This document shows positions 17,667-55,170 of a stretch of 64,000 bases of DNA, one piece after another; position 1 is the first letter of the stretch; each line of letters begins with the position of its first letter. The notes beneath the pieces are model-generated. The model had not been told where the DNA came from. It searched no databases and worked only from the letters and a program-made list of their open reading frames with translations. The translations under genes were made by a program, and so were the position numbers. The stretch comes from Escherichia phage KookSpook, in sequence record PP925842.1. One strand, 5' to 3'.

Positions 17667-17695
17667 ATTATACAGAATTTTAAGGCTTAAAGCAA
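17667..17695 (-). promoter_or_regulatory. strong early promoter (minus strand TTGCTT-17-TATAAT)
   Basis: plus-strand attata 17667-17672 and aagcaa 17690-17695; AT-rich flanks. Confidence 0.65.
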
Positions 17696-17712
17696 CTGAA
17701 TTTTTTAACTAT

Positions 17713-18144
17713 TTACCAATCGTTAACAACGCCGGAGAACTCAGAAGCAAAAACTTTTTCAAATTTCTCTGCAATTTCAGGATGATCTTTACAGATCAGT
17801 TCAATACATGCTTCTGGAGTCATTCCTTCGTCTTCAGGATCACCGTAGTATTTATCCCAAAGATCATCAGGGATGATATGCTCAGCCAAATCTTGGAAAG
17901 AAATTAACTGATAACGTTCTGCTTCCTCAGCAATGAGGATTTCACACAGATCTTTATCTATATCACTACGATAATCTGCAATTAGCAAGGCATTGCAAGC
18001 ATGGCATTCCCAGACCATCAAACGTTCTGAGATAGGATTAGACTTATCCTGAACGTAAGATTGGAACAGGGTTCGGAAAGTTGCCTTAACTTGTTCAAAC
18101 TTATCTGCTGCTGCGAAAACTAAGGCTTTATCAACTTTGTTCAT
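17713..18144 (-). CDS. hypothetical acidic protein
   Basis: 143-aa ORF. Confidence 0.55.
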   Translation of the reverse strand: MNKVDKALVFAAADKFEQVKATFRTLFQSYVQDKSNPISERLMVWECHACNALLIADYRSDIDKDLCEILIAEEAERYQLISFQDLAEHIIPDDLWDKYYGDPEDEGMTPEACIELICKDHPEIAEKFEKVFASEFSGVVNDW

Positions 18145-18174
18145 TTTTATTCCTTCTCATCAATTTATAAAGTA

Positions 18175-18203
18175 ATTATACAGAAACTTAGGCATTTTAG
18201 CAA
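18175..18203 (-). promoter_or_regulatory. strong early promoter (TTGCTA-17-TATAAT)
   Basis: attata 18175-18180, tagcaa 18198-18203. Confidence 0.65.
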
Positions 18204-18311
18204 ATAAAACTTTTAATTAAAATGCCTAATCCTGTACCAATAGCAATACAAATGATTATAAGTATCACTATCACTTGTATGATTCGTTTAATAATAGTCT
18301 CAGCTATATAC

Positions 18312-18833
18312 TTAGACATTTAACATCCAACTAGTTTTATCATGAGAAGTGTACTTACCACTCATAATGTCTTCCAGGCGTACGGGTGATTTTGCATACT
18401 CGACACAAACGTTAATATAACGAGGGTCTCCCACCAACTCAAAGTGAGTATGTCCATGTAAGTTCTTTTTACCCCTCAGCTCTCCTGAGTGCACTGGAGC
18501 ATGGGAAAGCCAAAAGTTCTTATACTTAACTAGTGATTGTATATTATCTACAACTCCTATTAGGTCTTTGAAAGATAATCCTTCTCGTTCTAAGTCGTGA
18601 TTCCCTAAAACTAATGTAGTTCTAACATTGCTGAAGAGTTTTTCAAATTTCTCCAAACCATTTCTAGATACAAATGCGTCGCCTAAAATATAGAATACTG
18701 TACGCTTATCTTTCATGGATGTGATAGTATCCATAATAAATTCATCATGCTCTTCCATAGTAGAGAAGATTGGTCTGAATTTAGTAATATTTGCGTGTCC
18801 TAAGTGGAGATCACTCCAAAAATGAACTTTCAT
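18312..18833 (-). CDS. calcineurin-like metallophosphoesterase
   Basis: 173 aa; motifs DLHLGH, GNHD, GHTH. Confidence 0.7.
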   Translation of the reverse strand: MKVHFWSDLHLGHANITKFRPIFSTMEEHDEFIMDTITSMKDKRTVFYILGDAFVSRNGLEKFEKLFSNVRTTLVLGNHDLEREGLSFKDLIGVVDNIQSLVKYKNFWLSHAPVHSGELRGKKNLHGHTHFELVGDPRYINVCVEYAKSPVRLEDIMSGKYTSHDKTSWMLNV

Positions 18834-19708
18834 TATAACACCCTCTGTACACCACAGCTATCTTCTTTACTTGTAGTAACTGTTGTGATTTTTCCAGTCT
18901 CATCATTAACTTGCGCAACCGTCAACTGCCCGTTGAAAACACCGCCAGTATCTAAGTAGACACGATTCTGGTATAAAATAGGGTAAGGTACTCCAGTATG
19001 TCCATGAAATACAAAGTCTACTCCACTAACTGGAGGTACTTCTACCATATACTTTTCCTTAAATCCAGCATAACGCTGGAAATAGGGGTGTTCCTCACCA
19101 TTTTTGGACAAGTGGAAGCCTATTTCTTGGATTACATCTCGATCCCATAAATATGGTTCAACATGGTACCCAGAATGGTCATGTGGGTCTTCCTTAGCTG
19201 CTTCTACTTGTGCAATAAGATTATCCCATACTGGGGTTTCTACCTCATTACCACATTCTTTGTATGTAAAAGGTACACCACCATGAACAACACCATATTT
19301 TTTACCACGATGTCTAACAGTTAGGAATACTGGCATTTTTTCAGCCATATCCTTAGCAATATTAATAGTAGTATCAGCATCTAGCTCATTCATAGCCCAC
19401 ATACCACCATTATACATCCAATTAGCCCAATCTCCTACAATCATAAATTGGTCATGATTACCACGAACACTACAAAAACGTGGGTTATACAAGAATTTGG
19501 CTAATACTTGTAGATTTTGTGTACCTCGATCAATTAAGTCACCTACACATACTACATAATCTTTCTTGCTGTTATAGCCCGCTAACTTTAGTGCATCTTC
19601 TAGTAAATCATTGCATCCATGAATATCACCAACGAAAAATAGGTTGGCATCATCTGGCACTACTAGTGTTTTATGTACATTAAATTCTTTTTTCATAATT
19701 AATCCCAA
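18833..19708 (-). CDS. serine/threonine protein phosphatase (PPP family)
   Basis: 291 aa; GDIHGC, GDLIDRG, GNHD motifs. Confidence 0.75.
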   Translation of the reverse strand: MGLIMKKEFNVHKTLVVPDDANLFFVGDIHGCNDLLEDALKLAGYNSKKDYVVCVGDLIDRGTQNLQVLAKFLYNPRFCSVRGNHDQFMIVGDWANWMYNGGMWAMNELDADTTINIAKDMAEKMPVFLTVRHRGKKYGVVHGGVPFTYKECGNEVETPVWDNLIAQVEAAKEDPHDHSGYHVEPYLWDRDVIQEIGFHLSKNGEEHPYFQRYAGFKEKYMVEVPPVSGVDFVFHGHTGVPYPILYQNRVYLDTGGVFNGQLTVAQVNDETGKITTVTTSKEDSCGVQRVL

Positions 19709-19944
19709 ATAACTGTTAAAATAGTTGTGCCGTAGTCCTTAGATAGTTGGAGAGTATAACCCTCTTTATAGATGGCTTTTATAGCTTCATAACTAATTTC
19801 ATCACGATTAAACTGTACAAAAGAACCTCCAATCTCCACAGAAGAAACTATTTTCTTTTTAACATACTTATATGGTTTCTTTCTGCTCTTAAGAAATGCA
19901 GCTCTATTTATTCTAGCCAAACGTTTTGCTTGTTCCGCTAACAT
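19699..19944 (-). CDS. hypothetical protein
   Basis: 81-aa ORF. Confidence 0.45.
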   Translation of the reverse strand: MLAEQAKRLARINRAAFLKSRKKPYKYVKKKIVSSVEIGGSFVQFNRDEISYEAIKAIYKEGYTLQLSKDYGTTILTVIWD

Positions 19945-19948
19945 TTAA

Positions 19949-20383
19949 TTATCTCCAGTGATTAGTATGCTTCTCAGCTTCCCCATCGTTAGGCTCAAAG
20001 ACAACATGGCAGTCAACTGCTTCCCAAAAAGCCTCACGGATTAAAGAGTTTTTAGCTGAAATGTCTAATTCTCCCCACTCTTCTAAAGTCTCTAGGTCTG
20101 TATCAACTTCGGTATCACAGCCAACCAGCCCCAAAGAAACAATAATAGTAACGCGATCTTCACGTTGTTCGGGATAAACATCAGCATATTCCCAAGCAGC
20201 TTCTTCAACATAATATTGTTGTTCCTTTTCTGGAAGTGACTTATACTTTTCTTCTGTAATACCCATCTCAACAGCGCGAGTACCACAAACTACATTGTTA
20301 TTAATAATTAGATATGCATAGTTCATTGAAATACTCCTACTTCTTGCAGTGCATAGATAACCATTAATATGACTAAAATCCAT
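19949..20383 (-). CDS. hypothetical acidic protein
   Basis: 144-aa ORF. Confidence 0.5.
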   Translation of the reverse strand: MDFSHINGYLCTARSRSISMNYAYLIINNNVVCGTRAVEMGITEEKYKSLPEKEQQYYVEEAAWEYADVYPEQREDRVTIIVSLGLVGCDTEVDTDLETLEEWGELDISAKNSLIREAFWEAVDCHVVFEPNDGEAEKHTNHWR

Positions 20384-53809: not shown

Positions 53810-53847
53810 TTGGCTTTCCTTTTTATAGTTATCAGGATTTAAGGAAT

Positions 53848-53876
53848 ATTCTACTTTATTATTAGTCATTAGGCAA
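53848..53876 (-). promoter_or_regulatory. early promoter (TTGCCT-17-TAGAAT)
   Basis: attcta 53848-53853, aggcaa 53871-53876. Confidence 0.5.
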
Positions 53877-53930
53877 ATAAAATTTTCTGATAGAAAAGGC
53901 CCGAGTATTTTCATACCCAGGCCTTATTTA

Positions 53931-54173
53931 TTACCAGTCTAGCTTTTTAGCTTGTTCAATTACTTTAGCTTTAGCTACTTCTTTTAATAGAATATCTATG
54001 GAAGTGCTTAACTCACTATAATTAAATGGTTTATTTGGATTTGAGGTTACAATTTTCCACGCTAGGGTAGTCTTAGGACTCTCTTCCCCTTCCTTACGTG
54101 TAATCATATTAGCAGCACTCAGTGAAGTACGATGTATTTTAGTTTTGCGGTGTAAATGAACGACGTTTCCCAT
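53931..54173 (-). CDS. hypothetical protein
   Basis: track ORF 53931-54242; start moved to ATG 54173 just after PhoH stop. Confidence 0.4.
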   Translation of the reverse strand: MGNVVHLHRKTKIHRTSLSAANMITRKEGEESPKTTLAWKIVTSNPNKPFNYSELSTSIDILLKEVAKAKVIEQAKKLDW

Positions 54174-54174
54174 A

Positions 54175-54936
54175 TTACACCTTCCCCATGTCTTTAAAAA
54201 TATCGTAAAATGCTTTGGATTCAACAGAACGAACGTTATCAATCAATTCGATCATTGAGAATGGAGCGTTTTCGTATTTCTCATAGACTTCCATAAGAAG
54301 TGCTAGACCTGAGTCACCCTTAATGTCTTTCTGAGCTATATCTCCACAGATAATTAAACGGCAGTCTTGTCCTACACGGGTTAGGAGACAAATCATTGCT
54401 TCAACGGAGATATTCTGAGCTTCATCGACAATTACATAGGAGTTGTTGAAAGTTCTGCCACGAGCATGTTCGATAGCCAGGAATTTAATTTTCTGACGCT
54501 CAACATATCCCTTATAGGCATGATCACCAATGGCCCATTTCATACCATCAGCTATTGGTTCCAACCAAGGCTCTAGCTTTTCTGCTAGATCACCAGGAAG
54601 CATACCAAGAGACTTACCTAGAGGTTCATTAGGACGTACTAGAATAACTTGCTCAATATCTGAGTGTAAGTCAACTAGTTCCTGAGCTGCAAGAACAGAG
54701 GGGATGAAAGTTTTACCAGTACCGGGCTCTCCAATACCCACTGTCACTGTATTGTTCTTGATCATATTGATATATGATTTTTGCTCTCGATTTTTACCTA
54801 CTAGGGATTTAGCAACTGGATTAGCGTAATCATTAGAAAAATCAGCCTGAATTACGTTATTCTCATATTTGTTGCCACGCTTTCTTGAACCATTGCGGTT
54901 CTCTCTTTTTTGACGTGCTTTTCCCATAAATAACAC
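54175..54936 (-). CDS. phoH: PhoH-like ATPase
   Basis: 253 aa; Walker A GEPGTGKTF. Confidence 0.8.
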   Translation of the reverse strand: MLFMGKARQKRENRNGSRKRGNKYENNVIQADFSNDYANPVAKSLVGKNREQKSYINMIKNNTVTVGIGEPGTGKTFIPSVLAAQELVDLHSDIEQVILVRPNEPLGKSLGMLPGDLAEKLEPWLEPIADGMKWAIGDHAYKGYVERQKIKFLAIEHARGRTFNNSYVIVDEAQNISVEAMICLLTRVGQDCRLIICGDIAQKDIKGDSGLALLMEVYEKYENAPFSMIELIDNVRSVESKAFYDIFKDMGKV

Positions 54937-55000
54937 TCCTATAGTGTACTTCGCTAACAGAGGATCAACAAAAAGATCTTGTTTATCAACTTACAAATAT

Positions 55001-55029
55001 ATTATACCAATATATACAGTAAAAAGCAA
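55001..55029 (-). promoter_or_regulatory. strong early promoter (TTGCTT-17-TATAAT)
   Basis: attata 55001-55006, aagcaa 55024-55029. Confidence 0.6.
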
Positions 55030-55141
55030 CTACAATTTTAAATAAGCCTATGATATTGCATTTAAATAAAAAATTTGCTTGCTTTTAATGGGAAATGTGT
55101 GGTATTAGATAATCATTTTATACCGCGTACATAGGCGCGTG

Positions 55142-55170
55142 ATTATACTATTTTAAGTACAAAGTAGCAA
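55142..55170 (-). promoter_or_regulatory. strong early promoter (TTGCTA-17-TATAAT), tandem with 55001
   Basis: attata 55142-55147, tagcaa 55165-55170. Confidence 0.55.

Follow-up and report, generated by a model that had tools for sequence, protein, structure and literature searches.

A known family of T5-type early promoters, conserved beyond the −35 and −10 hexamers, in Escherichia phage KookSpook

The early promoters of phage T5 are textbook examples of strong promoters. The commercial "T5 promoter" expression vectors rely on one of them, N25, which also serves as a standard model for abortive initiation; the upstream (UP) element, discriminator, and initial transcribed sequence of N25 have been studied since the 1980s. 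Homologies outside the −10 and −35 regions of T5 promoters were reportedly described by Gentz and Bujard in 1985, and the T5 early promoters were cloned and characterized by the Bujard, Ksenzenko, and Jay laboratories (GenBank AY543070/AY587007). Here, we analyzed a stretch of 64,000 nucleotides from Escherichia phage KookSpook (PP925842.1; hereafter the window), for which a reading made from the letters alone (the sequence-only reading) had proposed more than 20 near-identical strong early promoters between positions 17667 and 55170. The window holds about 28 copies of one extended promoter motif, and these are almost certainly early-class sigma-70 promoters of a T5-like phage that present a full set of contacts to the unmodified host RNA polymerase (RNAP). 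The family is already known, annotated, and experimentally characterized in T5 and its relatives.

According to a 2025 study, N25 consists of TTGctt, 17 bp, and TATAAT; the UP element is canonical, the spacer A/T rich, and the discriminator 6 bp long, and the initial transcribed sequence (ITS) controls promoter escape (PMC12464699). Its Kon is 2.9 × 10^8 M−1 s−1 and its open-complex half-life 180 min, and changing positions +3 to +20 lowered the yield of full-length RNA tenfold in vitro (PMC12464699). In T5, strong sigma-70 promoters precede both early and late genes, the discriminator ATATT occurs in all known early promoters, and P15A showed early kinetics by primer extension, as described by Klimuk et al. 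(PMC7472727). In phage AKFV33, Niu et al. (2012) listed 32 promoters with TTGCTw, 17 to 18 bp, and TATAATA, together with AAAAATT around −43 and TAAATT at +1 (PMC3326045). That set carries the same extended motif as the copies in the window, with no difference of substance, and AKFV33 belongs to the same genus-level group.

Sequence comparison identified the window as DNA of a T5-like siphovirus (Tequintavirus, Demerecviridae), with 88.5% identity to T5 over 42 kb and about 90% identity to many T5-like phages. The nearest database record, at 99.1% identity, is MG065692, which is unannotated and labeled 'Campylobacter phage C13', and several 'Listeria phage' records match too; the Campylobacter label is unexpected, as Tequintavirus relatives infect Escherichia and Salmonella.

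The searches for the family motif covered the whole window on both strands. A pattern search for TTGCTW-N(16-18)-TATAAT returned 19 exact matches, every one with a 17-nt spacer, 18 of them on the minus strand (17667 to 55170) and one on the plus strand (57215), while dinucleotide-preserving shuffles gave 0.29 ± 0.56 matches and never more than 2. Relaxing the pattern to one mismatch or an 18-nt spacer added the copies at 30416, 36375, 36746, and 47337. A position weight matrix (PWM) spanning −47 to +12 was trained on the clear copies, which scored 37 to 62 bits, and this matrix alone contributed 21768, 26288, and 60848 (plus strand) as well as the weak copies 13919 and 53848. The resulting family of about 28 members (16 to 62 bits) comprises 26 minus-strand and 2 plus-strand copies. 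In a control with 30 Markov-shuffled windows, the top score reached 15 bits, and nothing above 8 bits occurred in 29 of them. The proposed number of more than 20 copies was thus borne out by this family of about 28, but the interval first proposed was too narrow, since the plus-strand members at 57215 and 60825 and the weak minus-strand copy at 13919 fall outside it.

Every copy is oriented in the direction of its downstream genes. The PWM scan detected no family member in positions 1 to 13900, the stretch holding the pre-early region (about 1 to 13000, with A1, A2, and dmp, the 5′-deoxynucleotidase gene). Occurrence of the family is thus restricted to the early region.

We then compared the copies with the T5 record AY543070, in which 75-bp "promoter" features, many with historical names, are annotated across the region and have the same architecture in sequence; several of the names are those of promoters that had been cloned and selected for function. 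By coordinate mapping, 27 of the 28 window copies lie inside these features, the sole exception being the weak copy at 53848. The T5-like genome and this positional orthology support the proposal that the copies are strong sigma-70 early promoters. The classic N25 sequence matched T5 63048 to 63117 at 100%, where a promoter is annotated and the architecture is that of the family; its position would fall just past the right end of the window. The copies are as follows.

13919–13947, minus strand: weak member, TTGACG-17-TATAAT; 16.0 bits; T5 13238, promoter feature 13212–13286; ATG at +26.
17667–17695, minus strand: early promoter with the exact core; 60.9 bits; T5 promoter 16245–16319.
18175–18203, minus strand: early promoter, P-F30 orthologue; 53.0 bits; maps to T5 16779, the P-F30 −10 box; ATG at +25.
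20438–20466, minus strand: early promoter; 52.8 bits; T5 18576; T-tail of terminator hairpin 20475–20502 as −45 A/T block.
21768–21796, minus strand: early promoter variant, −35 TTGACT; 37.0 bits; T5 promoter 19368–19442.
26288–26316, minus strand: early promoter variant, −35 TTGCAC; 40.5 bits; T5 promoter 24443–24517; ATG at +26.
28424–28452, minus strand: early promoter; 52.1 bits; T5 promoter 26722–26796.
30416–30444, minus strand: early promoter in the tRNA region, P11 orthologue; 54.2 bits; T5 28623.
33345–33373, minus strand: early promoter, P13b orthologue; 55.1 bits; T5 32027.
34057–34085, minus strand: early promoter, P13a orthologue; 50.9 bits; T5 32784.
35596–35624, minus strand: early promoter, P14b orthologue; 51.1 bits; T5 34785.
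36375–36403, minus strand: early promoter, P14a orthologue; 48.4 bits; T5 35552.
36746–36775, minus strand: early promoter with an 18-nt spacer, P15c orthologue; T5 35923; ATG at +25.
37960–37988, minus strand: early promoter, P15b orthologue by position; 57.9 bits.
38357–38385, minus strand: early promoter, P15a orthologue by position; 49.9 bits.
42632–42660, minus strand: early promoter, P16-17 orthologue; 60.6 bits; T5 41580.
43305–43333, minus strand: early promoter, P-D/E33 orthologue; 61.8 bits; T5 42253.
44145–44173, minus strand: early promoter; 60.6 bits; T5 promoter 43067–43141.
45470–45498, minus strand: early promoter; 60.2 bits; T5 promoter 44393–44467.
47337–47365, minus strand: early promoter, −10 TAAAAT, orthologue of P-H207 (the classic 'P207'); 50.1 bits; T5 46012.
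47688–47716, minus strand: early promoter without the ATAAATT block; 43.2 bits; T5 promoter 46337–46411.
48789–48817, minus strand: early promoter; 47.7 bits; T5 promoter 46937–47011.
51404–51432, minus strand: early promoter before nrdB; 43.1 bits; T5 promoter 50061–50135; terminator hairpin 51450–51471 directly upstream.
53848–53876, minus strand: doubtful weak copy, TTGCCT-17-TAGAAT; 22.3 bits; maps to T5 52532, where no promoter feature is annotated.
55001–55029, minus strand: early promoter between the divergent phoH and nrdD genes; 51.3 bits; T5 promoter 53638–53712.
55142–55170, minus strand: promoter with the family UP block, −35, and −10; 19.6 bits (leave-one-out, −6.2); T5 promoter 53776–53850.
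57215–57243, plus strand: member heading the rightward early genes after nrdD; 52.9 bits; T5 promoter 55708–55782; ATG at +23.
60825–60853, plus strand: member with −35 TTGCAC; 37.8 bits (PWM position 60848); T5 promoter 58999–59073.

The T5 early promoters (P-H207, P-D/E33, P-F30, P11, P13 to P16, and N25) and the window copies have their consensus, genomic positions, and downstream genes in common. The differences are that the window isolate is diverged by about 11%, some spacers and flanking cassettes differ, the tRNA region contains indels, and a different gene stands between the P15a and P15b orthologues. Positions 37861 to 38760, between the P15b- and P15a-type promoters and just beyond, do not align with T5, and the window carries a different, shorter open reading frame (ORF) there. 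The T5 gene at that position is T5.076, a TOPRIM protein reported as an anti-retron factor (PMC10644984). When identity between the window and T5 was computed block by block, the −35 and −10 hexamers reached 97 to 98%, positions −46 to −36 95%, and positions +1 to +12 95.5%, as against about 90% for spacer and discriminator and 88.5% genome-wide. Such a distribution fits with selection acting on the outer blocks.

Next, we determined how far conservation among the copies extends beyond the hexamers. Over −50 to +20 (70 nt), pairwise identity averaged 56.5% (range, 36 to 77%), compared with 26% for random 70-mers, so that the copies are clearly related but far from "near-identical", as they had been described. 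Information content was calculated per position from 22 copies, with a small-sample bias of about 0.1 bit per position. The upstream block AAAAATTnA (−45 to −37) carried 0.6 to 1.3 bits at each position and TAAATT at +2 to +7 carried 0.5 to 1.3 bits, the consensus of the start region being ATAAATT at the predicted start. An NTAAATT-type block was located exactly 6 or 7 nt past the −10 hexamer in 19 of 25 copies. Between these blocks, the spacer showed a weak G/C patch near −25 and was then A/T rich up to cTG, an A at −6 directly followed the −10 hexamer in 20 of 22 copies, and the discriminator had the consensus ATATT. The suggestion that conservation continues beyond −35 and −10 therefore holds, with outer blocks at 0.5 to 1.3 bits per position, and the accompanying idea of extra recognition outside the hexamers agrees with what is established for T5.

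The conserved TG before the −10 hexamer was also considered as an extended −10 (TGn) element, and this was rejected, as the TG abuts the hexamer (cTG-TATAAT) and is one base too close; a G occupied −13 in 13 of 22 copies. A true TGn was flagged by the scanner in four copies only (28424, 30416, 36746, and 51404).

The upstream A/T tract resembles the UP consensus in sequence, and its putative role as a UP element is in line with how the sister promoter N25 has been described (PMC12464699). Promoters with UP elements, such as rrnB P1, lambda PR, and T7 A1, likewise have an A/T tract upstream of −35 at the proximal UP subsite. They differ from the window family in that the latter combines a perfect −10 with a −35 of TTGCTT, which matches TTGACA at 3 of 6 positions, and in that the upstream block of several family copies is not an A-tract but a terminator T-tail. 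This substitution was seen at 20438, 51404, and 57215, which form compact terminator-promoter junctions. Terminator hairpins standing directly upstream of promoters were found at 20475–20502, 51450–51471, 36796–36817, and 23488–23513 (minus strand).

The same architecture was recovered from distant members of the family. Pectobacterium phage My1 (Mccorquodalevirinae) gave 13 matches to the window PWM in its early region, within the first 50 kb, with scores of 23 to 56 bits and the full architecture. Vibrio phage JSF12 (Ermolyevavirinae), which was assessed by pattern searches plus alignment, gave 20 core matches with at most one mismatch versus 1.0 expected, all in the early half and all oriented like the annotated genes. 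Upon alignment of 18 JSF12 sites with 3 window copies, TTG, TA-AAT, and two A positions in the start-region ATAAA(T/G)T were invariant. The structural or late halves of both genomes contained few matches. These results indicate a promoter architecture that is ancestral to the whole Demerecviridae family.

How such a unit might work can be outlined from the literature on orthologous and sister promoters, on which the start site, strength, early timing, and role of each block proposed here depend. Each 60- to 70-bp unit would be a full recognition, isomerization, and escape module for the host sigma-70 holoenzyme. The A-tract at about −45 to −37 would provide a UP-element-like site for the alpha C-terminal domains, the noncanonical −35 TTGCT(T/A), followed by the 17-bp A/T-rich spacer, would be contacted by sigma region 4, the perfect −10 TATAAT by sigma region 2, and the A/T-rich ATATT discriminator by sigma region 1.2, and the A/T-rich ITS (ATAAATT...) would favor promoter escape. 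In protein-coding units, the leader runs on into a GAGAGG/AGGA ribosome-binding site, and the ATG follows between about +20 and +33. The copies would split the early region, which enters in the second-step transfer, into many short units (hypothetical early genes, nucleotide metabolism, tRNAs, and stable RNAs), and all of these would be switched on at a high level once the second-step DNA enters the cell.

Several observations weigh against this assignment. The ATAAATT block is missing from 6 of 25 copies, and the copy at 53848, unannotated in T5, falls within the first codons of the nrdA ORF (51479–53914). The name 'P11' is used inconsistently, for a pre-early promoter in one study (PMC7472727) and for a promoter of the tRNA region in the T5 record. 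Start sites, strength, and timing for the window phage are transferred from T5. Furthermore, a generic TTGACA/TATAAT scan revealed no enrichment in the region (54 matches versus 55.9 expected, and 56 versus 64.5 expected, from shuffles); such a scan misses every TTGCTT copy because TTGCTT shares only 3 of 6 positions with TTGACA. Thus, the evidence comes from the specific family motif and not from general promoter-likeness.

An unlikely, though seriously arguable, alternative is that the ATATT discriminator and ATAAATT are not mainly strength elements but a temporal-class code, read via a phage factor that binds RNAP (gpT5.026 or another early or pre-early protein) and shuts off or tunes early transcription. 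The discriminator is the main difference between the early and late promoters of T5, gpT5.026 weakens RNAP contacts at −5/+2, and early transcripts rise in its absence (PMC7472727). In addition, no family member occurs in the pre-early region, and the start block is as conserved as the hexamers in the Escherichia, Pectobacterium, and Vibrio phages, beyond what host-specific tuning would need. However, pure host holoenzyme without any phage protein suffices for extremely high activity of N25 and P207-type promoters, and the effect of the ITS on escape occurs in vitro without phage factors (PMC12464699). The effect of gpT5.026 is moderate and its mutant is viable, and its action through the discriminator is a suggestion of Klimuk et al., published as a hypothesis only (PMC7472727). 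Between the window and T5, moreover, the discriminator is about 90% conserved, no better than the spacer. A class code may act as an added layer but is not needed to explain activity. Since start block and discriminator are as conserved as the hexamers across three Demerecviridae subfamilies, the role of these blocks might exceed the optimization of escape. We also considered a family-wide version of the idea, in which the start block and the A/T discriminator form an 'early class' tag that is read via a conserved gpT5.026-like RNAP-binding protein and times early shut-off; this we hold to be decidedly speculative and rather improbable.

Conservation downstream of −10 could instead lie at the RNA level only, as a shared 5′ leader and ribosome-binding site, which appears improbable to us. 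The consensus does contain a GAGAGG ribosome-binding site after the start region, and most copies have an ATG at +20 to +33 preceded by GAGG or AGGA, so that downstream conservation is in part that of a ribosome-binding site; an A/U-rich leader before a Shine-Dalgarno sequence can, moreover, enhance translation. The copies that lead into RNA genes rather than into a convincing ORF, at 37960, 36375, 33345, and 42632, argue the other way. These units retain (A/C)TAAATT and lose GAGAGG, and thus the +1 block would act at the level of transcription. The RNA-level explanation fails at 37960, where the start block is kept with a tRNA about 10 nt on, and at 42632, where CTAAATT is kept before a stable RNA, and it likewise does not account for the tenfold loss of full-length RNA upon alteration of N25 +3 to +20 in vitro (PMC12464699).

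The RNA-gene units were characterized individually. At 37960, tRNA-Ser(GCU) is the gene that starts about 10 nt past the predicted start. The copy at 36375 heads a tRNA-Tyr/Glu/Trp/Phe cluster, with the first tRNA 122 nt from the predicted start and no ORF of the screened size beginning within 300 nt. Downstream of 33345 are about 230 nt without a convincing ORF, which correspond to the T5 stable RNA 'RNA2H', and then tRNA-Ala and tRNA-Leu. Two copies, 37960 and 33345, had been stated to head the tRNA cluster, but the tRNA region holds seven interspersed copies (30416, 33345, 34057, 35596, 36375, 36746, and 37960). The copy at 42632 had been said to read into an ORF-free region, and about 870 nt (41754–42625, minus strand) indeed lack a convincing ORF; this region is, however, a known one, since its T5 counterpart is 'RNAX', annotated as "stable RNA with unknown functions" (719 nt), followed by tRNA-Arg, which in the window lies at 41677–41753. 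A tRNA-like element at 42336–42409 within the RNAX stretch was called by ARAGORN and Rfam ('tRNA-Ser' with an odd ACT anticodon; Rfam tRNA, 37.2 bits) and is also present in T5. An Rfam scan of the whole window returned tRNAs only and no known RNA family for the conserved leader or the RNAX region.

It seems very improbable that the units are also, or mainly, homology patches at which recombination between co-infecting T5-like phages shuffles cassettes, as proposed for the promoter-stem-loop (PeSL) cassettes of T4-type phages. Small cassettes of hypothetical genes do lie next to many of the copies, several stand directly beside terminator hairpins, and the segment 37861–38760 between the P15a and P15b types is unaligned with T5. 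T4-type early promoters and PeSL cassettes are likewise many extended, A/T-rich sigma-70 copies across the early region, stronger than host promoters and in some cases adjoining stem-loops; their consensus is different, however, and the window units show no sign of marking recombination boundaries. Homology breakpoints relative to T5 showed no significant enrichment near promoters, with 6 of 50 within 60 nt versus 3.4 expected (P about 0.13, in a crude test on one genome pair). With 56% identity and variable spacers, the copies would be poor recombination substrates, and the mosaicism of T5 has been attributed mainly to homing endonucleases (PMC10644984).

Finally, a chance pattern of an AT-rich genome (61 to 64% A+T, with generic sigma-70-like matches as frequent as in shuffles) is excluded by the core-pattern shuffles (19 matches versus 0.29 expected, no shuffle above 2) and the PWM control, and it is at odds with a strand bias that follows gene direction and with the orthology to T5 promoters.

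Three further sites were noted around the family of early promoters. In the copy at 55142, ATAAATT in the start region is replaced by a GC-rich inverted repeat (CGCGCCTATGTACGCG; 55100–55141, minus strand), which is also kept in T5 and may be a regulatory site. This copy adjoins a plus-strand near-consensus promoter, TTGACA-17-TATAAT (55240–55268), in the divergent phoH/nrdD intergenic region. Between the plus-strand promoter at 60825 and the gene for the origin-binding protein, about 490 nt (60860–61350, plus strand) contain no ORF, with the same gap in T5 (58999 to 59545); candidates for this stretch are a long leader, a small RNA, and origin-related DNA. A TTGAAA-17-TATAAT promoter at 23390–23418 (minus strand) precedes the holin/lysozyme genes and corresponds to T5 promoter 20998–21071. 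It scored below 8 bits with the PWM, which places it outside the extended family, and it might represent another temporal class.

For the annotation of this phage, about 28 starts of transcription units are fixed in the window, the tRNA and stable-RNA clusters have promoters of their own, and the ORF-free stretch downstream of 42632 is explained as a known stable-RNA gene region. What is mildly new is that Vibrio and Pectobacterium Demerecviridae retain the complete architecture together with the +1 ATAAAT block, a modest extension that adds no new kind of element. An early-class tag, if true, would extend the published T5 hypothesis to the whole Demerecviridae family, and the family-wide conservation bears on how T5-like phages switch temporal classes.

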